A DNA stretch of 32,000 nt from Rhodococcus sp. HNM0569 (GCF_012726205.1 NZ_JAASAE010000007.1:102444-134443); one strand, 5' to 3'. Positions 4,308 to 28,736 are shown, numbered from the stretch's first letter. Notes: generated by a model from the letters alone, not told the origin. Made by a program: numbers and translations.

Positions 4308-4343
4308 AGCTTCGATTTCTCCTGAATCAGATGGGGAGGGACG

Positions 4344-5558: not shown

Positions 5559-5841
5559 TGTGCAGTGTTCCTTCCTGGTGTTCGTCCTGGCCTGGTGACG
5601 TCTCGGCCTGTTCTGTCCGACCTGTTGTCGCGTCTCGGTCGCGCCGACCTGACGCACGGGGCCGTGTGCGAAGGGCGCCGACCGTGCCCGCGCCGCGGCG
5701 TAGGGGCCGTCGCCCGTGCGGGACCGTCGCCCGGCACCGTTCACCATAGAACCCGCGGCAAAGGCGCTGGAAGGACCGAAGTGATCGAGGATCGTGACCG
5801 GAGCGATCAGTCGGTCGCACGGGTGGAGTCGACCGGCTCGG

Positions 5842-8229: not shown

Positions 8230-8323
8230 GGGCGACAGCCTACCGGCGGGTGGCGACACCGATCGAGGCCGTGAGGGGTCCCGGGGCACGCGCGTGTACG
8301 CGGACCGTACGAGTGCGCGACAA

Positions 8324-8388: not shown

Positions 8389-9201
8389 GTGCAGCTGAGC
8401 GGGTCCGTCGCGCTCGTGACCGGCGCCTCCGCGGGCATCGGTGCTGCGGTCGCGGACCGCCTCGCGGCGCGTGGCGCCCACGTCCTCGTGCACGGCCGCG
8501 ACGCCGAACGCACCCGCGCGGTCGCGGCCCACGTGCACGGCACCGCGATCCTCGGCGACCTCGCCGACCCCGCCGGACGCCACGCCGTCGTCGAGCACGC
8601 GCTCGCGGCACGCGGCCGCGTCGACATCCTGGTCGCCAATGCGGGCGCCGGGTGGTCGGGCCCGCTGCCCGACATGTCCGTCGCGCACGTGCGATCTCTG
8701 CTCGAACTCGATCTCGTCGCGTCGATCGAACTCACCCACGCCCTCGTGCCCGCGATGGTGCATCGCGGGCACGGCGCCGTGTGCTTCGTGTCGTCGATCG
8801 CGGGCCGCACCGGCGTGGCGGGCGAGGCCGTGTACTCGGCCGCAAAGGCGGGCGTCGACGTCTTCGCCGAGAGCCTGCGCGCCGAGACCGCCGGCACCGG
8901 CGTGAGCGTCGGCGTCGTCGTCCCGGGCGCCGTCGACACCGGATTCTTCGACCACCGTGGACGGCGCTACGACCGCGCGTTCCCCGCACCCGTGCCACCC
9001 GATCGCGTCGCCGACGCGATCGTGCGGGTCGTCGAGGGCGGTCGCGCGGAAGAGTGGGTGCCGCGGTGGCTGCGCCTGGCACCCGCGGTACGGGCGCTCG
9101 CGCCTGGCCCGTACCGCTACCTCGCGACGCGGTTCGGCGAACCGGTCCGGATCCGCAGCCGAGGGGACGGCGGGGGTCGTGACGGGGCCGACGCGCAGTG
9201 A
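8389..9201 (+). CDS. Short-chain dehydrogenase/reductase (classical SDR)
   Basis: 270 aa with the TGASAGIG cofactor motif, NAG (VANAGAG) and the catalytic YSAAK. GTG start is preceded by GAGGCGGA. Confidence 0.85.
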   Translation: MQLSGSVALVTGASAGIGAAVADRLAARGAHVLVHGRDAERTRAVAAHVHGTAILGDLADPAGRHAVVEHALAARGRVDILVANAGAGWSGPLPDMSVAHVRSLLELDLVASIELTHALVPAMVHRGHGAVCFVSSIAGRTGVAGEAVYSAAKAGVDVFAESLRAETAGTGVSVGVVVPGAVDTGFFDHRGRRYDRAFPAPVPPDRVADAIVRVVEGGRAEEWVPRWLRLAPAVRALAPGPYRYLATRFGEPVRIRSRGDGGGRDGADAQ

Positions 9202-10109
9202 TCCTCGTCGTCGTCCTGAGCCTCGCGGCGGCATTCCTGTTCGCGCTCGCGGCGTTCCTCCAGCAACGCGCGGCCCGCGTCGCCGTCGAGTCGCCTGCGA
9301 CACTCAACGCCGCGTCGGGTGTCGCGCGACTGCTGCGGCGGCTCGTGCGCAGCAGGACATGGCTGTCGGGTTGGGTCACCAACCTGCTCGGGTTCGGTAC
9401 GCAGGCCGCCGCGCTCAACCTCGGCTCGGTCGCCGTGGTGCAGCCGTTCATGTCGACGCAGTTGCTGTTCGCCCTGCCACTCGCGTCCGCCGAGCGACGC
9501 CAGTGGCCGTCGATGCGCGACTGGGCGTCGGCGATCGCCGTGTGCGGTGGGCTCGCGCTGCTGCTCACGTCGGAGCGTGCGGCACCGCTCACCGGCCAGC
9601 CGCTGCGTCCGCTCGTCCTGTTGGCGGCGGCGTGCGCGATCGGGCTGATCGTGATCCTGGTGGCGATCGGGCGCGTCGTCCCGCCGCACATCGCGAGCAG
9701 CCTCGTCGCGGTGGGCGCGGGATTGTGCTTCGCGATGAGCGCGGTGTTCATGAAGATGACGATCGACGACCTCGTGGGACGCGGGGTCGCGGCCACCGCG
9801 GTCGACTGGCCCGGCTATGCGCTCGCGGTGTCGACGCTCAGCGGCCTCGTCCTCGAACAACTCGCGTTCGCGAGCGGGGCGCTGCCGTCGGCCGTCGCCG
9901 CCATGAGCGTCACCAATCCACTCGCGAGTTTCGTGATCGGCATGATGGCGTTCGACGTGCCCGCGCCCACCGCGCCGCACGAACTCGCCGCGATCGCCGC
10001 GTCGGGCGTCCTGATCGTGATCGGTGTGACGGGACTCGCACACGCACGCAGCACGGAAATGGTATTCGCGCCCACCCCGCCGGGTGAGCAGAGCCACGAA
10101 CGTGCGTGA
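9198..10109 (+). CDS. Polytopic membrane protein, DMT (drug/metabolite transporter)-like permease
   Basis: 303 aa with roughly 9-10 hydrophobic segments and a two-halves architecture. GTG 9198 overlaps the SDR stop (GTGA). The family assignment is tentative. Confidence 0.6.
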   Translation: MILVVVLSLAAAFLFALAAFLQQRAARVAVESPATLNAASGVARLLRRLVRSRTWLSGWVTNLLGFGTQAAALNLGSVAVVQPFMSTQLLFALPLASAERRQWPSMRDWASAIAVCGGLALLLTSERAAPLTGQPLRPLVLLAAACAIGLIVILVAIGRVVPPHIASSLVAVGAGLCFAMSAVFMKMTIDDLVGRGVAATAVDWPGYALAVSTLSGLVLEQLAFASGALPSAVAAMSVTNPLASFVIGMMAFDVPAPTAPHELAAIAASGVLIVIGVTGLAHARSTEMVFAPTPPGEQSHERA

Positions 10110-10182
10110 CCGCGTCGTTCTCACAGCAAACGCTCACTGCACACACGGTGGAATGCGCCGATTCGATGCCATAGTGGAGTGC

Positions 10183-10887
10183 ATGCCTCATGACGCGGCC
10201 GACGAGGCTCACACGAGCCCGCACCTGCTTCCGTCCCTGCGCCACGACCATCACCACCACCATGTGATCGAGCTCGGCAGACTACGCCCGACGCTGCTGC
10301 GCGGTGCGCGGCTCCTGCTCGAGACGGTCGTCGTGCCCACCCTGTTGCTGTACGCGTGCAGCAACACCGTCGGTCAGTTCTGGGGGTTGGTCGCCGTCCT
10401 GGCGTGGTGCGCGCTCACCGTCAGCGTGCGACTGAGCCTGCGCCAGCGAGTGCCGGGCACCCTGCTGCTGGCGGTCGGCATGCTCGTCGGCCGCACGTCG
10501 GTCGCCCTGGCGTTCTCGAGCGTCTACGTGTATCTGTTCCAGCCGATCGCGGGGTCGCTGTTCATGGCGGCACTGTTCATCGGCAGCGCGCTCGTCGGCA
10601 AACCCGTCACCGCGCGGCTCGCGCAGGACTTCGTGTCGCTACCCGCACATCTGTTCGGCGACCATCGCATCCGCAAGATGTTCGTACAGGTCGCACTGTT
10701 GTGGGGCGCGTCGCGGCTCATCGACGCCGGGATGAGCGTCGGCAGCCTGCACTTCGGTCTCGACGCGGGACTGCTGTCACGCGGCATCCTGAGCACCGGG
10801 CTCACCATCGTCACGATCGGCGTGTGCACGTGGTGGGGCTGGAGCAGGCTGCGGCGGATGCCGGGGATCAGCTTCCGGCTCGGCTGA
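10183..10887 (+). CDS. Polytopic membrane protein of unknown function with a His-rich N-terminus. It may be VC0807/YciB-like; that assignment is tentative.
   Basis: The ORF is in the frame of track entry 10084..10887. ATG 10183 is preceded by GGAG 5 nt upstream and avoids overlap with the previous gene. The N-terminus is MPHDAADEAHTSPHLLPSLRHDHHHHH, followed by about 5-6 hydrophobic helices. Confidence 0.55.
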   Translation: MPHDAADEAHTSPHLLPSLRHDHHHHHVIELGRLRPTLLRGARLLLETVVVPTLLLYACSNTVGQFWGLVAVLAWCALTVSVRLSLRQRVPGTLLLAVGMLVGRTSVALAFSSVYVYLFQPIAGSLFMAALFIGSALVGKPVTARLAQDFVSLPAHLFGDHRIRKMFVQVALLWGASRLIDAGMSVGSLHFGLDAGLLSRGILSTGLTIVTIGVCTWWGWSRLRRMPGISFRLG

Positions 10888-10944: not shown

Positions 10945-11376
10945 TCACGAGCGGGCGAGCGTGACCTGCGTCTTGCCGAGCACCGTCGCGCCGTCCGCCT
11001 TGACCGTGAGATCGACGCGTAGCGCGTCGTCGGCCACGAGACCCACCTTGCCGGTCACGAACAGTTCGACGCCGGTGCCGTCCGGCACGACGACGGGACG
11101 CGTGAAGCGTGTCTCGTAGGCGCGGACGACCGTGGAGTCGCCGCCCGCCCAGTCGACGACGGCCTGCAAGGCGAGCGCCGCGGTCAGCATCCCGTGCGCC
11201 AGCACACCGGGCAGCCCCGCGTCCGCGGCGGCGCGGTCGCTGAAGTGGATCGGGTTGAAGTCGATCGCCGCGCCCGCGTACCGCACGAGACTCTCGCGCG
11301 TCACGCGGACCGACGTGTCGAGCACGATGTCGCCTTTCGACAGGCCATCCAGGTCGGTGTCGAGCACGGCAGTCAT
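10945..11376 (-). CDS. MaoC-family (R)-specific hydratase/dehydratase, HadB-like catalytic subunit
   Basis: 143 aa. The hot-dog hydratase 2 motif region is YAGAAIDFNPIHFSDRAAADAGLPGVLAHGMLT (D-x(4)-H with downstream G). ATG 11376 overlaps the upstream gene's stop (ATGA). Confidence 0.8.
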   Translation of the reverse strand: MTAVLDTDLDGLSKGDIVLDTSVRVTRESLVRYAGAAIDFNPIHFSDRAAADAGLPGVLAHGMLTAALALQAVVDWAGGDSTVVRAYETRFTRPVVVPDGTGVELFVTGKVGLVADDALRVDLTVKADGATVLGKTQVTLARS

Positions 11377-11819
11377 TGCTGTTCTCCGATCAGGAGCGAC
11401 GACGTGACCGTGACGACGTGCTCGCCTGCCTGGTCGTGGACGTCGCTGACGAGGTTCATGAAGGACACGCCGCCGCGTTCGCTGACACCGCTGACGGTGA
11501 TGGTCGTCGCGAGTTCGTCGCCGGCGACGACGTGCCGCGAGAACTCGAGCTTCTCCGTGGTGTGCACCGGCACGTGCCGCGTGAGGTCGATGCCGCTGTC
11601 GGGATCGGACACGAGCGCGTGCACGGCCTCGGTCTGGACGACCTTGACGAACGTCGGCGGCGCGACCACATCACGATGCCCCGCGGCGCGGGCCGCATCG
11701 ACGTCGAAGTGGATGTCGGACGTCGCGGACACGGCGCGCGCGAACTCGGCCACCTTCTCCCGCCCCACGGCATAACGGCTGGGGTCGGTGAACACGCGAC
11801 CGACGATCTGAGGATTCAC
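11373..11819 (-). CDS. MaoC_dehydrat_N-type hot-dog protein, HadA/HadC-like non-catalytic partner
   Basis: The N-terminus VNPQIVGRVFTDPSRYAVGREKVAEFARAV resembles the HadA N-terminus pattern (..IVG..Y..P..Y.V.REKI.EYA.AV). It lacks the D-x4-H motif. The start is uncertain: GTG 11819, GTG 11828 or the track start 11894. Confidence 0.7.
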   Translation of the reverse strand: MNPQIVGRVFTDPSRYAVGREKVAEFARAVSATSDIHFDVDAARAAGHRDVVAPPTFVKVVQTEAVHALVSDPDSGIDLTRHVPVHTTEKLEFSRHVVAGDELATTITVSGVSERGGVSFMNLVSDVHDQAGEHVVTVTSSLLIGEQQ

Positions 11820-11959
11820 GACAGGCACGGTCGGCCAGCGTAGCCGCGCGACGGCCGACCAGGCACTCAACCCCCGCATACTGCGACGCAGCACACGGTG
11901 CGCAGCGCGCAGCGGCGATTGCGGCGCGGAACCGATCCCGTAGGTGCTATGACAGACGC

Positions 11960-14044
11960 GTGAGCGTCGACACGGATCGACCGGCGACGCGCCCCCCGAT
12001 CGGGCGTGAGCTCGCCGCCGGCCTCGCGGTATTCGCGGTCTATCTGCTGGTGGAACTGCTCGCCGGTCCCGGCAGGCGAGCGGTCGCCGATCGCAACGCC
12101 GAGGCGCTGCTGCACTTCGAACAGTGGCTGCACATCGACGTCGAGAAGGCCCTCAACGAATGGATGGAGCCGCATGCACTGCTGACCGTGCTCGCGAACT
12201 ACGAGTACGCGTTCACGTACGTACTGAGCGCGTTCCTGCTGCTCGCGTGGCTCTACGTCAAACATCCCGACGACTATCGCCGCGCACGCAGCTCGTTCAT
12301 CGTGCTCAACCTCCTCTCGATCGCGTGCTTCGCGCTGTTCCCGGTCACACCGCCGCGGCTGCTGCCCGAGCTCGGCTACGTCGACACCGTCGCGCAGGGT
12401 GCGACCGTCGGGTCGTGGGGCTCGCCGCTGGTGTCGCATGCCAATCAGCTCGCGGCGATGCCGTCACTGCACGTCGCGTGGGCGTTGTGGGTCAGCGTCG
12501 TCCTCGCGCGGCTCTCGCGCGGCATCACGGTGCAGATCGTCAGTGCGATCCACGTCGCGATCACGGTGCTCGTGATCGTCGTGACCGCCAACCACTATCT
12601 CGTCGACGCGGTCGCGGCTGTCCCGTTCGTGTGGGCGAGCGTCGCGCTCGTCGACTGGCACCACGGGCGACGACGCGCCGCGCGCGTGCCGTCGGCCGAC
12701 GCGTTCTTCCTGCACGTCGAGTCGGACACCGCGCCGCAGCATGTCGGCGGCATGGTGGTGCTCGCACCCACCGGTACCGGCTCCCCCACGGTCGACGAGG
12801 TGCGCGCGCACGTGCGCGACCAGCTGGGCAACCTTCCGCGGTTCACGCAGCAGCTCGCACCGCTCACCACGTGGCGTCGACCACGCTGGGTCGCGGCCGA
12901 CGACATCGACTGGACCTGGCATGTCACCGAACGCACGGCGACCGACCCCGGCGAGAAGAACGGTGTCGAGCACGCGTCGGCGGCGCTGTCCCGGGCAATC
13001 GCTGATCTCGCCGCCGAGCGGCTGCCGCTCGACCGGCCACTGTGGCGCATCGTGCTCGTGCGCGAGATCTCGCCCGGACGAACCGGACTCGCTTTCCTCG
13101 TGCACCACTGCGTCGCCGACGGCATCGGCACGGTCGTGCAGGCGATGGAGTTGCTGCGACCGCGCATCGAGCTGCCGAGCGGCCATGCCGGCCCCGGAGC
13201 GCTGAAGACCGCGGCCGCGACCGTCGCCGGGCTCGCGCAGCTCGCAACCGACGGCAAGCCCGCCGCGAAACTCCCGCCGGGGTCGGCGGCGCGCGGATTC
13301 TCGACCGCCGCACTCGACCTCGCGTCGGTGCGTGCGATCGCGAAGAGCAACGGTGCGCGCGTCACCGACGTCGTGCTGACCGTCGTCGCCGAAGCCGTCG
13401 AGCGCACGCATCCGGAGTTCGCGGAGTCGTCGCTGCGCGGCAAGATGCGCGCGTCGGTACCGATCATGTTGCGCGAACCCGACTCCGCCGCGGAGGGCAA
13501 TGTCACGGCGGCGGTCATGCTCGATCTGCCGCTCGGCGACATGCCGGTGCGCGAGCGGCTCGCCCGCATCTCCCGCGTGAGCACGCGACTGCGCACGCCC
13601 ACGCGTGCGCTCGCGTCACGCTTCGTGATGGCGCACGTCCTCGCCGCGCTACCCGTGCCTGTACAACGCTGGTTCGCGCGCACCGTGTACGGGCCGTCGT
13701 TCCTGCAGGCCGTCGTGTCGAACATGCCGGGCCCGACGGTGCCGATGACGTTCATGGACGCACCGCTCGACCGGGTGGTGCCGATCCTGCCGCTCGCACC
13801 GGACGCACCGCTCGCGCTCGGCGCCCTCAGCTGGAACGGCGAACTCGGTATCGGCCTCGCGGTGGACGGGCACGTCCTCGACGCCACGGCCCTGACGGCG
13901 GCGATGAGCGACGTGGTCGACGCACTCGCCGACGAGGGAGCGCAGGCAGGCGTCGGCTACTCGGGGCCCCACTCGAGTGCGAGCAACATGCGGGCCCTCT
14001 CCCGCGGGGAGTCGAGCGCCGAACCGAAGTACTTGCGCAACTGA
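11960..14044 (+). CDS. Fusion protein: N-terminal PAP2_3-type (AUR1/IPC-synthase-like) lipid phosphatase/phosphotransferase membrane domain plus C-terminal wax ester synthase/diacylglycerol acyltransferase (WS/DGAT)
   Basis: Single 694-aa ORF. Residues about 1-233 are hydrophobic helices with PAP2 C2/C3-like motifs MPSLH (aa 167-171) and NHYLVD (aa 211-216). Residues about 243-665 show the WS/DGAT N-terminal pattern ADAFFLHVESDTAPQHVGG, the catalytic HHCVADG (aa 382-388) and the C-terminal NMPGP block. Confidence 0.85.
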   Translation: MSVDTDRPATRPPIGRELAAGLAVFAVYLLVELLAGPGRRAVADRNAEALLHFEQWLHIDVEKALNEWMEPHALLTVLANYEYAFTYVLSAFLLLAWLYVKHPDDYRRARSSFIVLNLLSIACFALFPVTPPRLLPELGYVDTVAQGATVGSWGSPLVSHANQLAAMPSLHVAWALWVSVVLARLSRGITVQIVSAIHVAITVLVIVVTANHYLVDAVAAVPFVWASVALVDWHHGRRRAARVPSADAFFLHVESDTAPQHVGGMVVLAPTGTGSPTVDEVRAHVRDQLGNLPRFTQQLAPLTTWRRPRWVAADDIDWTWHVTERTATDPGEKNGVEHASAALSRAIADLAAERLPLDRPLWRIVLVREISPGRTGLAFLVHHCVADGIGTVVQAMELLRPRIELPSGHAGPGALKTAAATVAGLAQLATDGKPAAKLPPGSAARGFSTAALDLASVRAIAKSNGARVTDVVLTVVAEAVERTHPEFAESSLRGKMRASVPIMLREPDSAAEGNVTAAVMLDLPLGDMPVRERLARISRVSTRLRTPTRALASRFVMAHVLAALPVPVQRWFARTVYGPSFLQAVVSNMPGPTVPMTFMDAPLDRVVPILPLAPDAPLALGALSWNGELGIGLAVDGHVLDATALTAAMSDVVDALADEGAQAGVGYSGPHSSASNMRALSRGESSAEPKYLRN

Positions 14045-15153
14045 GTGACTCGATAGCGCACCGTCTGCGGGTGGATGAACAACTCGTCGGCGACGGCGTG
14101 CCGGTCGCCCATGTTCCGCAACCACGACGCAAGCGTCTCGACGAGCCTGTTCCGTGTGCCCGCGGGCAGCCCGTCGAGCGGCGCGAGGATCTGTTCGCGC
14201 AGCGCCGCGATGATGCGGCCGTCGCGGTGGACGATGATCGTGTCGAGGTGATCGTGCACGAACAGCGGGTCGCCGCGCAGCAGGCCGCGTCCCTGGAGTT
14301 CCATCGCACTCTGCGGGATCCGAGTGCTCGCGGGCAGCTTGTCGAGCGGAACCGTGTGTCCCACGACGGCATTCGCGCCGCGCAGCATGCGACTGATCTG
14401 TTCGGCGCGGACCGGGGTGAGCGGACCGGGCACGATCGCCCCGTACATCGCCGACTGCCGCACCGGCAGGCACCGGTAGTCGAGGCGTTCGACGATCGCG
14501 CGCGCCGCGAGATCCGAGGGATCGACGAGCACGAGTGCCGCCTCCTGCGGCAGCGGCCAGCGCGCACGCTCGGCCGCCGACTGCACCGCGAGCGTGTCCG
14601 ATCGGCTCGACAGCAGCAGATCCGACAGCTCGCGCCGCAGCCGCTCACGTTCCGCGCTCGATTCGGACTGCTCGAGCACGTATCCGTGGGCAGACGCGGA
14701 GGAGAGTTGGTCGACGAACACGAACACCGCTTCGGCGAGCGCCGCGAGCACGTCCGACTGCAAGTGCATCTCGAGCGCCGTGTCGGAGACCTGCCGCCAC
14801 GCCGTCCGCGCCCCCACCTGATAGGCCGACAGCAGTTCCGTCAACTCGCGTCCGTGCACCCACTGCATCCGGCCGATCTGTTCGAACACGAGTTGCGCGG
14901 TCGGTTCGGCCTCGAGCGACTCGGGTTCGAGGTGCGCCAACGCCCGCGCGGCGACGACACGCAACCGGTGGATGAACACATTCGCGGCCTCGGCGACATC
15001 GATGTTGTTCTCGTCGAGAAATTCGGCGTAATCGGGCCAATCGGGCCGCAGCAGATCACCGACTTCCACCAGTAACCGGGGAAGTCGGCCGTTGAGAGCC
15101 TGCTCGAGCGCGTCGAGTTCGGTGTCGATCCGCGCTGTGTCGGCGTCGGTCAC
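13957..15153 (-). CDS. PucR-family transcriptional regulator (C-terminal PucR HTH)
   Basis: The C-terminus ...[41 protein letters not shown]... is the PucR_C helix-turn-helix. The start is set at GTG 15153 because codons 15154-15213 have low third-position GC and the track start is a TTG. The gene's 3' end overlaps the previous CDS by 88 nt. Confidence 0.8.
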
Positions 15154-15190
15154 CTTTACAGCAATACACCATTCACCCGCACCGTTCTCC

Positions 15191-15204
15191 CGGAACTTGT
15201 TCCG
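15191..15204. promoter_or_regulatory. Perfect 14-bp palindrome CGGAAC-TT-GTTCCG in the relatively AT-rich PucR / hpnC divergent region; candidate operator
   Basis: Read directly from the sequence. It lies between divergent starts 15153 (minus) and 15282 (plus). The binding factor is unknown. Confidence 0.35.
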
Positions 15205-15281
15205 AAATGACAAATTCGGGGATGGAGAACTACTCGCGTCGTTGCAGATTTCACACGAATTGCGGCGGGAGAATAGCGAGC

Positions 15282-16196
15282 ATGCCCTTCAGCGGTTTCG
15301 AGTCCCCGCGTGTGCAGAACACGACGCCGGGGCGCGGCGACGGCCGCGAGCCGAGCACCGCCACGCTGGACCAGCTCGCGCACGCGGAGAACTTTCCCGT
15401 CGCGCTGCGCGTGCTCCCCCGGTCCGTGCGCGCCGACCTGCGCGCGGTGTACGCCGTCGCGCGCACGATCGACGAGCTGGGCGACAGCGCACCGGGCGAC
15501 CGCACGGCCGCACTCGCCGACTTCCGCACCGACCTGCACCGCGTCTGGGCGGGCCGGACACCGCGCCGCGCCGTGCTGCGGTCGCTCGTCCCCACGGTGC
15601 GCGCACACGAGCTCGAGGCGACACCGTTCGACCGACTGATCGACGCGAACCTCGCGGACCAGCACACCCACACGTACGACACGTTCGACGAGTTGATCGG
15701 CTACTGCACGCTGTCGGCGGATCCGATCGGACGGCTGGTCCTTGCGGTGTTCGACCAGGACACACCACCGGCACGCGCACTGTCCGACACCGTGTGCCGC
15801 GCACTGCAACTGCTCGAACACTGGCAGGACGTCGCCGAGGACCGGCGGGCGGGCCGCGTCTACCTGCCGCGCGAGGACATGGTGCGGTTCGGCGTCACCG
15901 GCACCGACCTCGACGCGGCGCACGCGAACGACGCTGTGCGGCGGTTGATGCGCTTCGAGATCGACCGCGCGTCGGAACTGCTCGAGTCCGGCGCGCCGCT
16001 CGTGGGCATGTTGCGTGGCTGGGCGCGCGTCGCCGTCGCCGGCTACGTCGCGGGCGGGCGCGCCGCCGCACACGGCCTGAGACGCACCGGCGGCGACGTG
16101 CTCGGGATCGAGGCGATCACCCGCAAACGCGACGTATTCCGATCAGCGTGCGCACTGTCGTTACGTCCGCCGAGCGCGAAAGAGGCTGTCGCATGA
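15282..16196 (+). CDS. hpnC: Squalene synthase HpnC (hydroxysqualene synthase; PSPP to hydroxysqualene)
   Basis: Squalene/phytoene synthase fold with the HpnC-type N-terminus [14 protein letters not shown] and Asp-rich motifs ARTIDELGD and [16 protein letters not shown]. The start is set at ATG 15282 because upstream in-frame codons include rare AGA/ATA/TTT. GGGAGA lies 9 nt upstream. Confidence 0.85.
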
Positions 16197-17077
16197 CCAC
16201 GATCGACGACGCATACCGCACCGCGGAGGACGTGACCCGCACCGAGGCCAAGAACTTCTACTACGGCATCCGGCTGCTGCCACCGCCCAAGCGGTCCGCG
16301 CTGTGCGCGGTGTATGCGCTCGCGCGGCGCATCGACGACATCGGCGACGGCGACCTGCCGCCCGCGCAGAAGGTCACCGACCTCGCAGGCGTCCGCAAAT
16401 CGCTCGACACCCTGACCGATTCGCCCGACCCGGTGCTCGCCGCGGTCGGCGACGCGGCTCGGCGGTATCCGATCCCGATCTCGGCCTTCGGCGAACTCAT
16501 CGACGGCGTGCAGATGGACCTCGACGAGGTCACCTACGCGACCTTCCCCGAACTCGTCCTGTACTGCCGCCGTGTCGCGGGCGCCGTCGGACGGCTGTGT
16601 CTCGCGATCTTCGGCAGCGACGACGCGGGAAACGGTCGCGACGGCGGCCTCGACCCGCGTGCGTCCCGATACGCCGATCAGCTCGGGATCGCCCTGCAAC
16701 AGACCAACATTCTGCGCGACGTGCGCGAAGACCTCATGAACGGCCGCGTGTACCTGCCGCAGGACGAACTCGACCGGTTCGGCGTGCGGCTCGCCGTCGA
16801 CGAGAACGGCGAACTCGACGACCCGGACGGCGGCCTCGCGGCGCTGCTGCGCTTCTCGGCTACGCGCGCACAGGACTGGTATTCGCTGGGACTGCGACTG
16901 ATTCCGCACCTCGACAAGCGCAGCGCCGCGTGCACTCTCGCGATGGCCGGAATCTACCGGCACCTGCTGGTGCGCATCCACGACTCGCCCGCGTGCGTCT
17001 ACGACCGGAGGCTGTCGCTGTCGGGCATCGAGAAGGCCCGGGTCGCGGCCACCGCACTCACCAGGGCGGCCCTGTGA
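16193..17077 (+). CDS. hpnD: Presqualene diphosphate synthase HpnD
   Basis: 294 aa with the motifs [22 protein letters not shown] and [21 protein letters not shown] 16193 overlaps the hpnC stop (ATGA). Confidence 0.85.
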
Positions 17078-18438
17078 CGCCCGGCGGAGTCGCAGGCCCG
17101 CGGCGCGTCGCCGTCGTGGGCGGCGGACTCGCGGGGCTCACCGCGGCGCTGCGTCTCGCCGACGCAGGCGCCGCCGTCACGCTGCACGAGGCGAAACCAC
17201 GGCTCGGCGGGCTCACCTCGTCGTTCCGGCGCGGCGAGCTGTGGGTCGACAACGGGCAGCACGTCTTCCTGCGCTGCTGCACGTCCTACCGCGCGTTCCT
17301 CGACCGGCTCGGCGTCACCGAGCTGACGACTCTTCAGGACCGGCTAGACATCCCGGTGCGCAGCGACACCGCCGAGGCGCGGCTGCGTCGTGGACGGATG
17401 CCCGCGCCGCTGCATCTCGCGGCATCGCTGGCGCGTTACCCGTGGCTCACCACGCTCGATCGTGCGCGTTTCGTGCGTGCCGCGCTCGCGCTGCGTGCCG
17501 TCGACCGCGACGACCCTCGTACCGACGATCTGTCGTTCGGCCGGTGGCTGCGCAGCCGCGGCCAGGATCCCGCAGCGGTCGGGTCGCTGTGGGATCTCGT
17601 GGGTGTCGCAACCCTCAACGTCCGCGCCGACGACGCGTCGCTCGCGCTCGCCGCCACGGTGTTCCAGATCGGGATGCTCACCGACCGCGCTGGCGGCGAC
17701 ATTGGGTGGGCGCGTGTGCCTTTGCAGCAACTGCACGGCGACGCCGCGGGTTCGGCGCTTGCCGATGCGGGCGCCGACGTGCACACCCGCAGCAAGGTGC
17801 GCGCACTGCACCCGGTCGGCTCCGGCTGGACGGTCGTCACCGACGACGGCCGCGAAGACGTCGACGACGTGGTGGTCGCGGCCCCGCCTGCCGTCACCGA
17901 ATCGCTCGTGCCCCACGGCGCGCTCGACGTGCCTGCGGGCTGGTCGCGCGAACTCGGTGTCTCCCCGATCGTCAACCTGCACGTCGTCACCGACCGCCGC
18001 GTCCTCGACACGCCGTTCGTGGCAACCGCGGGCAGCGACGTGCAGTGGGTGTTCGATCGCACCGACCAGTCGTCGCTGACGTCCGGGCAGTACCTCGCGG
18101 TGTCCGTCTCGGCTGCCGACGAGTTCGTCGATGCCCCGACTGCCGCGCTGCGCACACACTTCGCACCCCAGCTGCAGGCCGTCCTGCCCCGGCTGCGCGA
18201 CGCGCACGTGCACGAGTTCTTCGTCACCCGCGAACGCGAGGCGACCTTCCGCGCAGCGCCCGGCACCGCGCGGCTTCGGCCGGGCAATCGCACGCGCGCG
18301 CCGGGCCTGTACGTCGCGGGCGCGTGGACCGCGACGGGCTGGCCCGCAACCATGGAAAGCGCTGTGCGCAGCGGCGATGCCGCCGCCGACGCGCTACTCG
18401 AGGACGCCCGGGACAGTGACACGAGGGAGGCAGCATGA
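17074..18438 (+). CDS. hpnE: Hydroxysqualene dehydroxylase HpnE (FAD-dependent, amine-oxidase/phytoene-desaturase fold)
   Basis: 454 aa with the N-terminal dinucleotide motif [21 protein letters not shown]. Its position follows hpnC-hpnD. GTG 17074 overlaps the hpnD stop (GTGA). Confidence 0.8.
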
Positions 18439-19457
18439 CCGCGACGCTCGAAACACTGGGCCGCAGCCGCGAACTGGTGACTCCCGCGCTCCGCGCGGCC
18501 GTCTCGCGGCTCGACCCGCACACGCGCATGGTCGTGTCGTACCACTTCGGGTGGTGCGACGAGACGGGGACGCCGCTGGCGGGCAACGGCGGCAAGGCCG
18601 TACGCCCGGGGCTCGCGATGCTCGCCGCCGAAGCGGCGGGTGGCACGCCTGCGGACGCGCTGCCGGGCGCGGTGGCCGTCGAACTGATCCACAACTTCTC
18701 GCTCGTACACGACGACCTGATGGATCGGGACACGCGGCGTCGTCACCGCACCACGGTGTGGGCACTCTGGGGCGACGCGACCGCGGTGCTCGCGGGCGAC
18801 GCGATGCTCTCGCTCGCGCACGAGGTGCTCCTCGACAGCGGTTCCGAGTTCGCCTCCGACGCGGGTTCGGTCGTCACCACCGCGACGCGCGAACTCATCC
18901 GCGGTCAGGTCCAGGACACCGCGTTCGAGCAACGCGACGACGTGTCGCTCGCGGAGTGCCTCGACATGGCGTCCGCCAAGACCGGCTCGTTGCTGGCTGC
19001 GAGCGCCGCGATCGGCGCCGTCCTCGCTGGCGCACCCACGGCCACGCGCGCCGCGCTGTCCGCCTACGGCGCGCACGTCGGCCTCGCGTTCCAGTTGGTC
19101 GACGACCTGCTCGGTATCTGGGGCCTGCCGGACGTCACCGGCAAACCCGTGTTCTCCGACCTGCGCTCACGTAAGAAGTCGCTGCCGATCACGTGGACGA
19201 TCGACAACGGCGGCGAGCACGGTCGCGAGCTCGCGGCGTGGCTGGCGGACGGCACGCGCGCCGATCGTGCCGACGACGCGGAACTGGCCGAGGTCGCGGC
19301 ACTCGTCGAGGCGGGTGGCGGCCGGGCGTGGACCGAGGCCGAGGCCAGGCGCCGCATCGACGCCGCCGACGCGGCGCTCGCGTCGGCGTCCCTCGCGTCC
19401 GAGCCGGTCGCTCACCTGAAGTCCCTGGCCCGCTTCATCGTGGAGCGCGACGCCTGA
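18435..19457 (+). CDS. Polyprenyl diphosphate synthase (short-chain trans-prenyltransferase; probably farnesyl diphosphate synthase)
   Basis: 340 aa. The first Asp-rich motif is LVHDDLMD, with Phe at position -5 (NFSLVHDD). The second motif is FQLVDDLLG. ATG 18435 overlaps the hpnE stop (ATGA). Confidence 0.85.
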   Translation: MTATLETLGRSRELVTPALRAAVSRLDPHTRMVVSYHFGWCDETGTPLAGNGGKAVRPGLAMLAAEAAGGTPADALPGAVAVELIHNFSLVHDDLMDRDTRRRHRTTVWALWGDATAVLAGDAMLSLAHEVLLDSGSEFASDAGSVVTTATRELIRGQVQDTAFEQRDDVSLAECLDMASAKTGSLLAASAAIGAVLAGAPTATRAALSAYGAHVGLAFQLVDDLLGIWGLPDVTGKPVFSDLRSRKKSLPITWTIDNGGEHGRELAAWLADGTRADRADDAELAEVAALVEAGGGRAWTEAEARRRIDAADAALASASLASEPVAHLKSLARFIVERDA

Positions 19458-19491
19458 GATATCGAGTTCGCCTACCCGACAGGAGGATTGC

Positions 19492-21396
19492 ATGACGACG
19501 ACAGCCGATCGCGCGCCCGACGACCTGGAGGCGACGCCTGCCGAGGCCGCGCTCGACCGTGCTATCACGTGGTTGCGCGGCCGTCAGGACGGCACCGGGT
19601 GGTGGAAAGGCGATCTCGACACCAACGTCACGATGGACGCCGAGGACTTGATGATGCGCGCCTTCCTCGGCATTTCGAGCCAGGAGGTCACCGAACCCGC
19701 GGCACGCTGGATCCGTTCGCAGCAACGCGAAGACGGAACATGGGCCACCTTCCACGGCGGCCCGGGCGAGATCTCGACGACCGTCGAGGCCTGGGTGGCG
19801 TTGCGGCTCGCGGGCGACGAGCCGGACGCACCGCACATGAAGGCCGCGGCCGAGTTCGTGCTCGCGAACGGCGGCATCGAGTCGACGCGCGTGTTCACGC
19901 GGATCTGGTTGTCGCTGTTCGGGTTGTGGTCGTGGGACGACTGCCCGGAGATGCCGCCCGAGATCATGTTCCTGCCCAAGTGGGCCCCGCTGAACATCTA
20001 CGACTGGGGCTGCTGGGCGCGCCAGACGATCGTGCCGCTCACGATCGTCGGCACGGTCAAGCCGGTGCGCCCGTTGCCGTTCGGCATCGACGAGTTGCGA
20101 TCCGGCCGTCCGGCGCCCGCACTCGACTCGCCCCGCACGGCGTCGGGCTTCTTCCAGCGTCTCGACAAGGTGCTGCACGGATACGCGAAGCACCCGGTCG
20201 GGCCGCTGCGCACGCTCGCGATGAAGCAGGCGACCGAGTGGATCCTCGCGCGGCAGGAAGCCGACGGCGGGTGGGGCGGCATCCAGCCGCCATGGGTGTA
20301 TTCGATTCTCGCGCTGCACCTCATGGGCTATCCGCTGGATCATCCGGCACTACGGGCGGCGCTCGACGGCCTCGAAGGCTTCGTGCTGTACGCGGACGGC
20401 CCCGAGGGCCCGACGCGGCGGCTCGAAGCGTGCCAGTCGCCCGTGTGGGACACCGCGCTGTCGGTGGCCGCGCTGCTCGACTCCGGGGTACCCGCCGACG
20501 ATCCGGCACTGCGCACCGCGACCGACTGGCTGCTGGACGAGCAGATCACGAGCGACGGCGACTGGAAGGTGCGCCGGCCCGACGTGCCGTCGGGCGGCTG
20601 GGCGTTCGAATTCGCGAACGACATCTACCCCGACACCGACGACACCGCCGAGATCGTCCTCGCGCTACGGCGCATCCGGCACTCGGATTCCGCACGGTTG
20701 GACGGCGCGCTCGAGCGCGCCGTCGCGTGGACCGCAGGCATGCAGTCGAAGGACGGCGGATGGGGCGCGTTCGACGCCGACAACACGAGCACCGTCCCGA
20801 CGAAGCTGCCCTTCTGCGATTTCGGTGCCGTGATCGATCCGCCGTCGGCCGACGTCACGGCGCACGTCGTCGAGATGCTCGCAGGCGAGGGTCCCGCGCA
20901 CGCGGGCCGGGTCGCGCGTGGTGTGACGTGGCTGCGGGACAACCAGGAACCCGACGGCTCGTGGTTCGGCCGTTGGGGCACCAACTACATCTACGGCACC
21001 GCCGCCGCGGTCCCCGCGCTCGTCGCGGCAGGCGTCGGGACCGACGACCTGTCGATCCGCCGGGCCGTGCGGTGGCTCGAAGAGCACCAGAACGACGACG
21101 GCGGGTGGGGCGAGGACATGCGCTCGTACGTCGACTCGGCGTGGTCCGGACGCGGCGAATCCACGGCGTCGCAGACCGGCTGGGCGCTCGTCGCGCTGCT
21201 CGCCGCAGGCGAGCGGTCCGCCGCCGTCGAACGCGGCATCGCGTGGCTGGTCCGGACCCAACGGCCCGACGGCCACTGGGACGAGGAGTACTTCACCGGC
21301 ACCGGATTCCCGGGCGACTTCTACATCAACTACCACCTGTACCGGCAGGTGTTCCCGATGTGGGCGCTCGGCCGATACCTCGAGGACCGCACATGA
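19492..21396 (+). CDS. shc: Squalene-hopene cyclase
   Basis: 634 aa with the catalytic DxDDTA motif (YPDTDDTAEIV) and multiple QW repeats (QDGTGWW, QREDGTW, QEADGGWGG, QSKDGGWGAF, QEPDGSWFGRWG, QNDDGGWGE, QRPDGHW). AGGAGG lies upstream of the ATG. Confidence 0.95.
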   Translation: MTTTADRAPDDLEATPAEAALDRAITWLRGRQDGTGWWKGDLDTNVTMDAEDLMMRAFLGISSQEVTEPAARWIRSQQREDGTWATFHGGPGEISTTVEAWVALRLAGDEPDAPHMKAAAEFVLANGGIESTRVFTRIWLSLFGLWSWDDCPEMPPEIMFLPKWAPLNIYDWGCWARQTIVPLTIVGTVKPVRPLPFGIDELRSGRPAPALDSPRTASGFFQRLDKVLHGYAKHPVGPLRTLAMKQATEWILARQEADGGWGGIQPPWVYSILALHLMGYPLDHPALRAALDGLEGFVLYADGPEGPTRRLEACQSPVWDTALSVAALLDSGVPADDPALRTATDWLLDEQITSDGDWKVRRPDVPSGGWAFEFANDIYPDTDDTAEIVLALRRIRHSDSARLDGALERAVAWTAGMQSKDGGWGAFDADNTSTVPTKLPFCDFGAVIDPPSADVTAHVVEMLAGEGPAHAGRVARGVTWLRDNQEPDGSWFGRWGTNYIYGTAAAVPALVAAGVGTDDLSIRRAVRWLEEHQNDDGGWGEDMRSYVDSAWSGRGESTASQTGWALVALLAAGERSAAVERGIAWLVRTQRPDGHWDEEYFTGTGFPGDFYINYHLYRQVFPMWALGRYLEDRT

Positions 21397-22877
21397 CACG
21401 CGCGGCCGCACCTCCCGGCGTCGTGTGCACACCGCTGCGCGCCGAACACTATGCGCTGCGCGGGTCGCTCGGCGCGCCGATGCAGCGCACCGGTCGCGGC
21501 CCCTCGGGGCGGTGCGATGCCGACGGGCCGATCCTCGTCGCGGGCGTCGGCGGGGCACTCGGCGCGACACTCTCTCCTGGAGAACTGCTGGTGGCGAGCG
21601 AGATTCGCACGACCGCGGGCGAGACCTACGCGAGCCACGCGGCACCGTTCGTGTACGGCGCGCTCGAGCGGCTCGGGCTCCCGGTGCGCACGGGCCCGCT
21701 GCTGTCGGCGCCCGCCGTGGTCGACGGGTCCGCACGCGTCTCCGCGGCCGAGGGCGGTGCCGTCGCCGTCGACACCGAGTCGGGTTATCTCGCGGCGCAC
21801 GCGCCCGCAGGCGGCACCGTCGCGGTCCGCGCGATCGTCGACGGGCCCGACGCGCCCCTGGTACACCCGGGCACCGCACTGCGCGGCGTCTCCGCACTGC
21901 GGACCCTGCGCGCGGCCGCCCCGGCCTTCGACCAGTGGGCCGCCGCGACCGGTGATCGAGAGGTGCTGCTCGCCTCGCCACGCTCGTTCTGTGCGGGTGT
22001 CGAACGCGCGATCGACACGGTCGAGATCGCACTCGAACGGTTCGGTGCGCCGGTCTACGTGCGTCGCCAGATCGTGCACAATGCGCATGTCGTACATGAT
22101 CTCGAAGAGCGTGGCGCGGTCTTCGTCGAAGAAGTGGACGAGATCCCGCCCGGTGCGCTGGTCGTGTTCGCCGCGCACGGCGTGTCCCCTGCCGTGCGCG
22201 CGGCCGCGGCCGAACGCGACCTGCGCGTCGTCGATGCGACGTGCCCGCTCGTCGCGAAGGTGCACACCGAGGTCAAGCGGTTCGCATCGCGTGGTTCGAC
22301 GGTGTTCCTCATCGGGCACGAGGACCACGAAGAGGTCGAGGGCACCCGCGGCGAGGCCGCCGACAATGTCGTGGTGGTCGCCGATCCGAAGGCGGCCGAG
22401 CAGGTCACCGTGCCCGATCCGGAACGCGTGTCGTACGTCATGCAGACGACACTCTCGGTCGACGAGGCCGAGGAGACGGCCGCTGTACTGCGGCAGCGCT
22501 TTCCGTCGCTGTCCGCGCCGCGGCGCGACGACATCTGCTACGCCACCACCAATCGCCAGTCGGCGATCCGCGCGGTGGCCCGCGAATCCGACCTCGTTCT
22601 CGTGCTCGGTTCGCAGAACTCCTCCAACTCGCTCCGGCTGGTGGAGGTTTCCGAGAAGTGCGGCACCCCGGCGCATCTCGTCGACGACGCGAAGTCCGTC
22701 GACCTGGCGTGGCTCGCGGGCACCGAACGGATCGGTATCACCGCGGGAGCATCCGCGCCCCCGCGGCTCGTGGACGAGCTGGTCCGGTGTTTCTCCGGGC
22801 TCGGTACGACCACCGTCCGCGAGGTCCACACGGTAGACGAAGACGTTCGATTCACAGTCCCCCGAGAGGTGAGCTGA
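21393..22877 (+). CDS. hpnG-ispH: Single-ORF fusion: HpnG-like hopanoid-associated nucleoside phosphorylase/nucleosidase domain (aa about 1-190) plus IspH/LytB 4-hydroxy-3-methylbut-2-enyl diphosphate reductase (aa about 191-494)
   Basis: ATG 21393 overlaps the shc stop (ATGA). There is no in-frame stop until 22875-22877. The N-terminal part has the PNP_UDP-like pattern (ILVAGVGG..., AVAVDTESGY). The C-terminal part starts VLLASPRSFCAGVERAIDTVE and retains all three IspH cluster cysteines (SFCAGV, DATCPLV, DDICYATTNRQ). Confidence 0.85.
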   Translation: MTRAAAPPGVVCTPLRAEHYALRGSLGAPMQRTGRGPSGRCDADGPILVAGVGGALGATLSPGELLVASEIRTTAGETYASHAAPFVYGALERLGLPVRTGPLLSAPAVVDGSARVSAAEGGAVAVDTESGYLAAHAPAGGTVAVRAIVDGPDAPLVHPGTALRGVSALRTLRAAAPAFDQWAAATGDREVLLASPRSFCAGVERAIDTVEIALERFGAPVYVRRQIVHNAHVVHDLEERGAVFVEEVDEIPPGALVVFAAHGVSPAVRAAAAERDLRVVDATCPLVAKVHTEVKRFASRGSTVFLIGHEDHEEVEGTRGEAADNVVVVADPKAAEQVTVPDPERVSYVMQTTLSVDEAEETAAVLRQRFPSLSAPRRDDICYATTNRQSAIRAVARESDLVLVLGSQNSSNSLRLVEVSEKCGTPAHLVDDAKSVDLAWLAGTERIGITAGASAPPRLVDELVRCFSGLGTTTVREVHTVDEDVRFTVPREVS

Positions 22878-22878
22878 C

Positions 22879-23883
22879 ATGGACATGCCCTGGCACCAGA
22901 CACTTCGGCTCGGCACCTACCTGTTCAAGCAGAAGATGCTGCGTCGCGAGAAGTACCCCATCATCGTCGAGCTCGAACCTCTGTTCGCGTGCAACCTCGC
23001 GTGCGCCGGCTGCGGCAAGATCGCGCACCCCGCGTCGGTCCTCAAGCAGCGCATGCCCGTCGAGCAGGCGGTCGGGGCGATCGACGAGTGCGGCGCCCCC
23101 ATGGTGTCGATCGCGGGCGGCGAACCGCTCATGCACAAGCAGATCGACGAGATCGTGCAGCGCCTGCTCGACAAGAAGAAGATCGTCTTCCTGTGCACCA
23201 ATGCCGTACTGCTGCCCAAGCATCTGCACCGGTTCACGCCGCACCGCAATTTCGCGTTCATGGTGCACATCGACGGGCTCCGGGAGCGGCACGACGCGTC
23301 CGTGTCGAAGGAAGGGGTCTTCGATCAGGCCGTCGACGCGATCAAACAGGCCCAGGCGGCGGGCTTCCGGGTCATGACGAACACGACCTTCTTCGACACC
23401 GACACTCCGCAGGACGTGATCGACGTCCTCGACTTCCTCAACGACGACCTGAAGGTCGACAACATGCAGATCTCGCCCGGCTTCGCCTACGAGAAGGCGC
23501 CCGACCAGGAGCACTGGCTCGGTGTCGAGCAGACCCGCGAGCTGTTCCGCAAGTCGTTCGCCGACGGCAGGCGCAAGAAGTGGCGGCTCAACCACTCCCC
23601 GCTGTTCCTCGACTTCCTCGAAGGCAAACGGGATTTCGACTGCACGGCGTGGGCGGTGCCGTCCTACTCGATCAAGGGCTGGCAGAAGCCCTGCTACCTG
23701 CTCGAGGACGGGTACGTCGACACCTACCGGGAGCTGATCGACGACACCGACTGGGACGCGTACGGGCGTGGCAAGGACGACCGCTGCTCGAACTGCATGG
23801 CCCACTGCGGATACGAGCCGACGGCCGTCGTCGCGACGCTCGGTTCACTGCGGGAGACCCTGCGCGCCGCGGTCTCGTCATGA
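22879..23883 (+). CDS. hpnH: Adenosylhopane synthase HpnH (radical SAM)
   Basis: 334 aa. EPLFACNLACAGCGKI carries the CxxxCxxC radical-SAM motif in the HpnH-typical N-terminal context (YLFKQKMLRREKYPIIVELEP). It starts 1 nt after the ispH stop. Confidence 0.9.
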   Translation: MDMPWHQTLRLGTYLFKQKMLRREKYPIIVELEPLFACNLACAGCGKIAHPASVLKQRMPVEQAVGAIDECGAPMVSIAGGEPLMHKQIDEIVQRLLDKKKIVFLCTNAVLLPKHLHRFTPHRNFAFMVHIDGLRERHDASVSKEGVFDQAVDAIKQAQAAGFRVMTNTTFFDTDTPQDVIDVLDFLNDDLKVDNMQISPGFAYEKAPDQEHWLGVEQTRELFRKSFADGRRKKWRLNHSPLFLDFLEGKRDFDCTAWAVPSYSIKGWQKPCYLLEDGYVDTYRELIDDTDWDAYGRGKDDRCSNCMAHCGYEPTAVVATLGSLRETLRAAVSS

Positions 23884-27675: not shown

Positions 27676-27693
27676 TAAGTTAGCCTAAGCTTG
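27675..27693. promoter_or_regulatory. IdeR/DtxR-type iron box in a divergent promoter
   Basis: TTAAGTTAGCCTAAGCTTG (reverse complement CAAGCTTAGGCTAACTTAA) matches 14 of 19 positions of the consensus TTAGGTTAGGCTAACCTAA. The palindromic core TTAGGCTAA is perfect. The site sits in the AT-rich gap between the esterase (minus) and the siderophore-binding protein (plus). Confidence 0.7.
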
Positions 27694-27724
27694 TTTATCT
27701 TGATCCCAGAAAGGGAGCACGTCG

Positions 27725-28732: not shown

Positions 28733-28736
28733 CGCG

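Follow-up and report, generated by a model that had tools for sequence, protein, structure and literature searches.

Which reaction is carried out by a protein that joins a membrane domain of the PAP2_3 family to a wax ester synthase/diacylglycerol acyltransferase (WS/DGAT), and why does its gene stand beside genes of hopanoid synthesis? The question is raised by a stretch of 32,000 nt from Rhodococcus sp. HNM0569 (69% GC; here called the window). An open reading frame (ORF) at 11960..14044 on the plus strand, starting with GTG, codes there for 694 amino acids (aa) comprising the PAP2_3 membrane domain, a linker and the WS/DGAT acyltransferase. The gene belongs to the actinobacterial hopanoid gene neighbourhood, in which the acyltransferase, and not the PAP2_3 domain, is the constant hopanoid-linked part. 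Tentatively, the protein may be regarded as a two-site membrane enzyme that would convert phospholipid to diacylglycerol (DAG) outside and DAG to triacylglycerol (TAG) inside, within a hopanoid-coordinated remodelling of the membrane.

Integrity and start codon of the fused gene

The GC content of the ORF was 0.886 at the third codon position (GC3) and 0.504 at the second (GC2). In a window of 69% GC this contrast marks the ORF as a real gene, which is relevant since long spurious ORFs are common in the window. Furthermore, a database protein of Rhodococcus sp. HNM0569 was 100% identical to the product. Codon bias, the identical protein and the Pfam domains described below all support the first-pass annotation of this DNA, which had described a 694-aa ORF joining two domains.

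A homologue search among 5.8 billion proteins resulted in 680 matches at E ≤ 1e-10. The three-domain architecture was continuous in 120 of the 120 best homologue clusters, which stem from isolates and metagenomes and cover many genera. Fusion homologues were obtained from Aldersonia, Nocardia, Mycolicibacterium, Nocardioides, Marmoricola, Modestobacter, Phytohabitans, Dactylosporangium, Actinoplanes, Rugosimonospora, Skermania and many metagenomes. The intact fusion in all of these clusters excludes a missed stop codon, including one near nt 12650-12690 that had been considered as a possible division into two genes. It also refutes a false joining of two adjacent genes through a sequencing or assembly error, an explanation with practically no probability left. 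In addition, length and charge of the linker are conserved among the homologues, and AlphaFold modelled the full-length protein with confidence (pLDDT 87.6, pTM 0.81).

The NCBI gene model comprises 644 aa and starts 50 aa downstream of the GTG, thereby skipping 11960-12109. It lacks the predicted transmembrane helix 1 (aa 16-35; 12005..12064, plus strand), in which G21, L22, F25, Y28 and V31 are conserved in the homologue alignment. Because this helix is kept in the homologues, the GTG start at 11960 was preferred, and the annotated 644-aa start is probably wrong. Promoter and terminator scans around the fused gene revealed nothing above the shuffled expectation.

Many fusion homologues already carry an NCBI and UniRef name. 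Since the architecture is recognised by annotation pipelines, the fusion itself is no discovery. Full-text literature searches for the fusion and for acyltransferases linked to hopanoids returned no paper in which either this fusion or such a WS/DGAT is described, and the earlier remark that no characterised fused enzyme is known still holds. As far as the searched literature shows, the new elements are the hopanoid linkage, the three companion genes upstream, the predicted placement of the two active sites on opposite membrane faces and the three-way set of fusions, all of which are described below.

Family assignment and predicted topology of the two domains

The C-terminal half contains both Pfam domains of the WS/DGAT family, WS_DGAT_cat (PF03007; aa 246-392, 12695..13135; E 3.6e-23, 83.1 bits, cut-off 23.6) and WS_DGAT_C (PF06974; aa 513-653, 13496..13918; E 4.3e-19, 69.4 bits, cut-off 20.7), on the plus strand like all features of the fused gene. 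The motifs PLW (aa 360-362; 13037-13045), HHxxxDG in the form of the catalytic HHCVADG (aa 382-388; 13103-13123), xDVVL as TDVVLT (aa 469-474) and NxPGP as SNMPGP (aa 587-592; 13718-13735) were identified. Domains and motifs are those of Acinetobacter AtfA (7nxg), the Marinobacter enzyme (6chj) and the actinobacterial Atf/Tgs proteins.

In a Foldseek search with the full-length model, the closest solved folds were 6chj (E 8.6e-20, target TM-score 0.72) and 7nxg (E 4.1e-18), with 21% identity, followed by condensation domains of non-ribosomal peptide synthetases. A phmmer search of solved structures led to the same two enzymes (E 1.4e-17 for 6chj and 8.5e-11 for 7nxg). By Pfam, motif and fold tests, the C-terminal half is a complete WS/DGAT-type acyl-CoA O-acyltransferase of predicted activity, as had been proposed from the HHCVADG and NMPGP blocks. 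It differs from the known WS/DGATs in being tethered to a polytopic membrane domain, in its hopanoid neighbourhood and in its score of 203 bits against NCBIfam TIGR02946, which is below the curated cut-off of 309.95. The low score indicates a divergent branch of the family.

The N-terminal domain (aa 49-230; 12104..12649) matched PAP2_3 (PF14378) with an E-value of 1.5e-48 and 165.6 bits (cut-off 27), and positions 2-190 of the 190 profile positions were covered. Classical PAP2 (PF01569) gave no match in the 694-aa protein at E ≤ 1. The first-pass assignment to the PAP2_3 type of Aur1, the fungal inositol phosphorylceramide (IPC) synthase, was thus correct.

The C2-like motif PSLH (aa 168-171; 12461..12472) and the C3-like motif HYLVD (aa 212-216; 12593..12607) can be compared directly with yeast Aur1. 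S169-L170-H171 and H212-xxx-D216 correspond to S253-L254-H255 and H294-xxx-D298 (PMC13133130), and the distance between the two histidines is 41 residues here and 39 in Aur1. HYLVD would provide the putative nucleophile His and the activating Asp of an H-H-D triad. The canonical C1 motif KxxxxxxRP was absent from the domain in the motif check; an invariant PPR in outer loop 3 (aa 131-133; 12350..12358) may correspond to the C1 arginine. Also missing is the SR of the C3 motif SRxxxxxHxxxD, the local sequence being TANHYLVD. Lacking both canonical C1 and the SR of C3, the domain is, judged by its motifs, of the transferase type rather than the classical phosphatase type.

In contrast to Aur1, the protein is bacterial, has no Kei1 partner and is fused to an acyltransferase, and ceramide, the substrate of Aur1 and the sphingomyelin synthases (SMS), is not expected in the fusion-bearing organisms. 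Similarity to solved or curated members of the family is too low to score. The NCBIfam model PhinosDhcerSyn (phosphoinositol-dihydroceramide synthase) matched weakly, with 15.7 bits at a cut-off of 480, and on this measure the N-terminal half is too distant from the curated IPC synthases to be named one. Sequence and profile searches of solved structures (PDB) gave nothing for this domain. When folded alone from an 11-sequence alignment, it resulted in a poor model (pLDDT 59), for which the best Foldseek matches, of the PgpB/LpxE kind (PgpB 5jwy, 8bm3), were non-significant (E 0.17-0.29) and give a weak hint. The Foldseek list of the full-length model was dominated by condensation-domain folds, so that the membrane domain was not comparable there.

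Conservation and charge were analyzed in an alignment of 50 homologues with 50-67% identity. S169, L170, H212, D216, H382, H383, D387, G388, N588 and G591 were invariant in all 50 sequences and H171 was kept in 49. Further invariant residues are YEY (81-83), R110, N117 and the PPR mentioned above (131-133). Since catalytic and further residues are invariant in both halves, both are under selection as enzymes. The motifs quoted in the first-pass annotation (SLH at 169-171, HYLVD at 212-216, the linker, HHCVADG and NMPGP) were all recovered at the positions given there, invariant or nearly so.

The N-terminal 235 residues contain six hydrophobic helices. The mean net charge (K+R minus D+E) was +1.0 for the N-terminus, +2.4 for loop 101-112, +0.8 for loop 185-189 and +1.4 for the linker, compared to −0.4 for loop 36-72, −0.5 for loop 129-169 and −1.0 for loop 210-216. 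According to the positive-inside rule, an N-in/C-in topology is predicted, with SLH and HYLVD on extracytoplasmic loops and the Arg-rich linker HGRRRAARVP (aa 235-244; 12662..12691) in the cytoplasm. This placement resembles that of Aur1, in which H255, H294 and D298 are found on luminal loops (PMC13133130). The acyltransferase domain is expected to be cytoplasmic because it needs acyl-CoA. We infer that the membrane separates the two active sites, one on each face; any shared intermediate would then have to cross the bilayer, which makes direct channelling unlikely.

Linkage of the fused gene to hopanoid genes

In the window, the fused gene is the final gene of a set of four on the plus strand. 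The set starts with an SDR (adh_short) oxidoreductase (8389..9201), followed by a membrane protein of the DMT/EamA family (9198..10109; NCBIfam DMT_1, 93 bits, cut-off 50) and a membrane protein of the VC0807 family (10084..10887; 65.2 bits, cut-off 65). Downstream, a PucR-type regulator (13957..15213, minus strand) is convergent with the fused gene and divergent from hpnC, the first gene of a complete hopanoid operon (15207..25715, plus strand).

Related loci were compared by means of a tblastn table. Fused loci were counted only if the flanking sequence was sufficient (n=20), and hopanoid (hpn) genes were sought within 10 kb. In 12 of these 20 loci hpn genes adjoin the fused gene. Aldersonia, Phytohabitans, Nocardioides and Dactylosporangium share the order SDR, DMT, VC0807, fusion, PucR on the opposite strand, hpnC-D-E, fpps, shc, ispH, hpnH and dxs. 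Modestobacter keeps fusion, PucR and hpn in this order and lacks the three upstream genes, and a search starting from the Amycolatopsis viridis cyclase led to a matching layout.

Besides this collinear arrangement, three others were identified. In two loci whose identity is only 34-42% (L015, L016), the hpn genes are located on the opposite strand and PucR directly upstream of the fusion. In an Actinomadura (L006), fusion and hpn genes are directly divergent and PucR is absent, and in a further locus (L018) the hpn genes precede the fusion. The linked loci belong to at least seven lineages (Mycobacteriales, Pseudonocardiales, Micromonosporales, Propionibacteriales, Geodermatophilales, Streptosporangiales and Jatrophihabitans). 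A proximity that survives four arrangements in seven lineages argues for a functional linkage between the fusion and the hopanoid genes.

The other eight loci had no hpn gene within 10 kb. They comprise three Nocardia, two metagenome-assembled genomes (MAGs) of Mycobacterium, a Mycolicibacterium, one Actinomadura and one unclassified actinomycetotal MAG. Elsewhere, a cyclase is nevertheless present in six Nocardia taxa presumed to carry the fusion (transvalensis, blacklockiae, wallacei, aobensis, nova and sp. BMG51109). Several contigs with a fused protein agree in length with contigs that carry a cyclase (29,619; 63,409; 98,627; 150,004; 31,302; 29,912; 83,686). N. transvalensis has the PucR-hpn unit without the fusion at its hpn locus. 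A Frankia DGAT mentioned alongside hopanoids turned out not to be linked to the hopanoid cluster.

The neighbours named in the first-pass annotation were a divergent HadAB-like dehydratase pair and the convergent PucR, both of which are present. The MaoC/HadAB-like pair (10945..11894, minus strand), located between the VC0807-family gene and the fused gene, was seen in the window only. No counterpart was found in the 29 related loci examined, whereas the position of PucR is conserved. The pair is outside the conserved module.

Exchange of the domain partners

The acyltransferase also occurs without the PAP2_3 domain. Five Kribbella genomes (L008-L010, L012, L013) contain a stand-alone WS/DGAT homologue with 560-610 bits against the profile of the C-terminal domain, and no PAP2_3 domain was detected within 10 kb of it. 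It is flanked by SDR and PucR, with hpn genes in four of the five loci; in the fifth, the contig ends inside PucR. In Kribbella the acyltransferase directly follows the SDR gene, DMT, VC0807 and PAP2_3 being jointly missing, as if lost as one unit.

In Pseudonocardia acaciae (L091:1661-4147, minus strand), an 828-aa protein combines a UgtP-like glycosyltransferase (MGDG_synth/GT28) with WS/DGAT. Its gene forms an operon with PucR, a DMT-like gene and SDR, and is divergent from hpnC. The homologous acyltransferase half scored 250 bits against the C-domain profile and kept the active-site motif as HHALGDG, whereas NxPGP is degenerate (SVMPGR); in further contrast to the Rhodococcus protein, a cytoplasmic glycosyltransferase takes the N-terminal place. 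Among the NCBIfam models, the glycosyltransferase matched the diglucosyl-DAG synthase UgtP best, with 93-146 bits compared to 20-28 bits for MurG. In total, 458 matches to this glycosyltransferase–WS/DGAT family were found in Pseudonocardia, Saccharopolyspora, Actinopolyspora and Halopolyspora, and two of the contigs concerned agree in length with cyclase contigs (17,699 and 18,258).

The acyltransferase and SDR adjoin PucR/hpn in all three architectures. Since the hopanoid position can be taken by the acyltransferase alone, as in Kribbella, or by its fusion to a glycosyltransferase, as in Pseudonocardia, it is the acyltransferase that represents the constant part.

With the PAP2_3 domain alone as query against 1.84 billion representatives, 3864 relatives were obtained, most of them stand-alone proteins of 260-340 aa. 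In four clusters the domain is fused to a glycosyltransferase of this type, which shares 35-38% identity with the Pseudonocardia half. PAP2_3, the UgtP-like glycosyltransferase and WS/DGAT therefore occur in all three pairwise combinations. In the examined locus of the PAP2_3–glycosyltransferase type, from an actinomycetotal metagenome (L087:10001-13152), an 816-aa fusion is followed by a polysaccharide deacetylase, with no hpn genes nearby. This locus suggests a route from phospholipid to (amino)glycolipid. Another PAP2_3 cluster is represented by an 818-aa protein (P0345), in which the domain is fused to MecA_N and a penicillin-binding transpeptidase. From its domain composition, this fusion hints that undecaprenyl diphosphate at the outer face may be a substrate of some members of the subfamily.

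Stand-alone PAP2_3 relatives were examined in 61 loci (L020-L080; 35-45% identity) from Streptomyces, Solirubrobacterales, Acidothermaceae and others. Beside them lie housekeeping genes (ATP synthase, histidine phosphatase, GlnE) or uncharacterised genes, which give no clue to the substrate; none of the 61 loci had a WS/DGAT or hpn gene within 10 kb. In Streptomyces, the genes after the stand-alone one encode two conserved proteins (about 420 and 550 aa) without a Pfam match. A split version, with PAP2_3 and WS/DGAT as adjacent separate genes, was sought among the examined loci and none was found.

Possible function of the fused protein

In the tentatively favoured scheme, the outer-face PAP2_3 domain would attack the phosphate of a glycerophospholipid, which may be phosphatidate (PA), phosphatidylinositol (PI), phosphatidylethanolamine (PE), phosphatidylglycerol or cardiolipin. 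A phospho-histidine intermediate would be formed on H212 and DAG released, and the head group would pass to water or another acceptor, for which a hopanoid polyol is one candidate. DAG would then flip across the bilayer unaided and be esterified with acyl-CoA by the tethered cytoplasmic domain, yielding TAG. The physiological role would be the conversion of phospholipid to neutral lipid in a remodelling programme that is organised with hopanoid synthesis and probably shares the PucR regulator, bulk fat storage not being likely.

Release of DAG from a glycerophospholipid, as proposed here, is known from Aur1, SMS and SMSr. The first half-reaction of Aur1 releases DAG by means of its S-L-H and HxxxD residues (PMC13133130), and SMSr makes DAG from PA, PI, PE and phosphatidylcholine without an acceptor (PMC7988496). 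The independent fusion of the PAP2_3 subfamily to a UgtP-like glycosyltransferase adds Rosetta-stone evidence. Two unrelated cytoplasmic partners that consume DAG point to DAG as the product of the domain. The first-pass annotation had suggested that DAG is channelled straight from one domain to the other. Its DAG intermediate gains indirect support from the UgtP-like fusions and the Aur1/SMSr chemistry; straight channelling does not agree with the predicted position of the sites.

Comparable pairs of activities have been described as separate proteins. In Streptomyces coelicolor, Lpp-alpha and Lpp-beta together with SCO0958 perform the two-step route from phosphatidate via DAG to TAG, and their co-expression yields TAG in E. 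coli (PMC3599759). Unlike the fused protein, the two Lpp enzymes are of the classical PAP2 type (PF01569) and separate from the acyltransferase. In DAG-recycling pairs of a head-group transferase and DgkA, such as mcr-1 with pap2 or dgkA, a head-group transfer at the outer face reportedly leaves DAG, which is removed by the linked enzyme (PMC7559476). There the removal is a phosphorylation by a kinase, whereas an acylation within one polypeptide is proposed here.

Several points weigh against the formation of DAG outside and its acylation inside. With active sites predicted on opposite faces, strict channelling is not given. There is no direct reason linking TAG synthesis to hopanoids, and the conserved SDR partner has no role in the scheme. 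The Kribbella acyltransferase stands at the hopanoid locus with no PAP2_3 domain in the 10 kb around it, and the Pseudonocardia protein pairs two consumers of DAG, which is odd for a fusion. The fusion to a penicillin-binding protein implies that the PAP2_3 subfamily is not restricted to substrates yielding DAG. Finally, the acyltransferase half represents a divergent branch (TIGR02946, 203 bits at a cut-off of 310).

After a rough weighing of prior and likelihoods, the DAG scheme comes out about even with another possible explanation, a tailoring of hopanoids, in which the acyltransferase would esterify a hopanoid alcohol (bacteriohopanetetrol or ribosylhopane) instead of DAG. The SDR would supply the alcohol through reduction of ribosylhopane. 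The N-terminal partner, PAP2_3 here and the UgtP-like glycosyltransferase in Pseudonocardiales, would attach a polar head group to this hopanoid or process one there; PAP2_3 would work as an IPC synthase does, using a hopanoid polyol instead of ceramide. Such a function would account for acyltransferase and SDR as the constant pair beside PucR/hpn in the three architectures and for a linkage that persists over four arrangements at identities down to 34%. The presence of hpnH, in most cases with an HpnG-like domain, indicates that the adjacent operons make extended C35 hopanoids, yet they are without known tailoring genes. The transferase type of the PAP2_3 domain, with SLH and HxxxD as in Aur1, no canonical C1 and a weak match to phosphoinositol-dihydroceramide synthase, is also in agreement with it. 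The promiscuous WS/DGAT enzymes also accept sterols (steryl ester synthase activity; bioRxiv 10.1101/775916). On the other hand, the family by default acylates DAG and fatty alcohols, no hpn genes occur within 10 kb of eight fused loci, and the examined PAP2_3–glycosyltransferase fusion (L087) is not beside hopanoid genes. The opposite-face topology would demand the flipping of a polyhydroxylated lipid. Acyl hopanoids are known from few bacteria only, and we know of no phospho-hopanoid. It is rather doubtful that SDR, DMT, VC0807 and the fusion form a complete hopanoid-tailoring module in which the SDR converts ribosylhopane to bacteriohopanetetrol, the acyltransferase produces hopanoid esters and PAP2_3 serves as an 'IPC synthase for hopanoids'. 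In such a module, the PAP2_3 half could move a phospho-head group from phospholipid to a hopanoid polyol at the outer face and be replaced by the glycosyltransferase in Pseudonocardiales. A role of PAP2_3 as the phosphoribosylhopane phosphatase was considered and set aside as the leading explanation, the active site being predicted to face outward and most hopanoid producers lacking such a gene.

A plain fused Kennedy pathway, i.e. phosphatidate phosphatase and DGAT for storage TAG with the hopanoid neighbourhood as meaningless inherited synteny, is unlikely. The domain pair fits the last two Kennedy steps, in rhodococci the phosphatidate phosphatase step lacks a firm assignment (PMC4850399), and SMSr has strong phosphatidate phosphatase activity with a comparable triad (PMC7988496). 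In R. jostii RHA1, PAP2 genes are barely expressed and are found in no Kennedy-pathway operon (PMC4850399). The predicted phosphatase site faces outward, however, while phosphatidate arises de novo on the inner side of the membrane, and the domain is not of the PF01569 type of the proven Lpp-alpha and Lpp-beta (PMC3599759). Nor does passive synteny predict an hpn linkage that persists through rearrangements and partner swaps. The essential proposal of the first-pass annotation, a bulk fused route to storage fat, is therefore not the best interpretation in view of the predicted outward-facing site and the rearrangement-proof hopanoid linkage. Very unlikely is a synthesis of isoprenoid esters, in which PAP2_3 would dephosphorylate a (poly)prenyl (di)phosphate and the wax-synthase activity esterify the resulting alcohol. 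WS/DGAT enzymes accept isoprenols, the neighbouring genes produce farnesyl and presqualene diphosphate, and PAP2-type enzymes act on polyprenyl diphosphates, with one relative fused to a penicillin-binding protein. However, HpnC and HpnD use cytoplasmic substrates, charged diphosphates do not flip across to a site facing outward, and the UgtP-like partner indicates glycerolipids.

Active sites on both membrane faces in one polypeptide, as predicted here, would be unusual for lipid remodelling. The gene family provides a concrete candidate for the DAG-forming step of bacterial neutral-lipid synthesis as well as candidates for late hopanoid tailoring in Actinobacteria (ribosylhopane reductase, hopanoid acyltransferase). 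Point mutants in H171, H212 and D216 compared to H382 and H383 would separate the two sites. Natural controls are given by the acyltransferase alone in Kribbella, the glycosyltransferase fusion in Pseudonocardiales and the PAP2_3–glycosyltransferase fusion elsewhere. If the plain conversion of DAG to TAG is true, the enzyme would be of interest for oil engineering. A true hopanoid function would add to the known biomarker lipids and to the uses known for the IPC-synthase fold, and the products of a true tailoring module would be new classes of hopanoid conjugates.

Hopanoid operon and further genes of the window

The genes of the hopanoid operon, several of which overlap by 4 bp, all lie on the plus strand. 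HpnC (15207-16196; 269.5, cut-off 250.45), HpnD (16193-17077; 296.1, cut-off 278.6), HpnE (17074-18438; 408.9, cut-off 283) and HpnH (22879-23883; 513.5, cut-off 225) all scored above their NCBIfam equivalog cut-offs. The other genes were identified by Pfam as a polyprenyl synthase (fpps, 18435-19457; polyprenyl_synt), the squalene-hopene cyclase with both cyclase domains (shc, 19492-21396), IspH (21393-22877; LYTB) and dxs (23880-25715; DXP_synthase_N). Such an operon is unusual for a strain labelled Rhodococcus; the closest cyclases are those of Aldersonia and Nocardia with 73-76% identity.

IspH has an N-terminal extension of about 190 aa without a Pfam match. At the position of this extension, relatives carry a PNP_UDP_1 (HpnG-like) domain fused to IspH. 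In the window this domain has either diverged strongly or decayed. The TTG start called for PucR (15213, minus strand) overlaps the ATG start called for hpnC (15207, plus strand). As this leaves no shared promoter region, at least one of the two starts is probably located further in.

Upstream of the conserved set, the minus strand of 2157-8289 contains a FadB-like enoyl-CoA hydratase/3-hydroxyacyl-CoA dehydrogenase gene (2157-4307) and dnaX (5845-8289), which have no conserved link to the SDR–DMT–VC0807–fusion module. At 26344-30032, an enterochelin-esterase-like gene, a Peripla_BP_2 binding protein and a GDSL lipase with an SsfX3-like N-terminal domain were found, which probably constitute a region for siderophore use that is unrelated to the fused gene.

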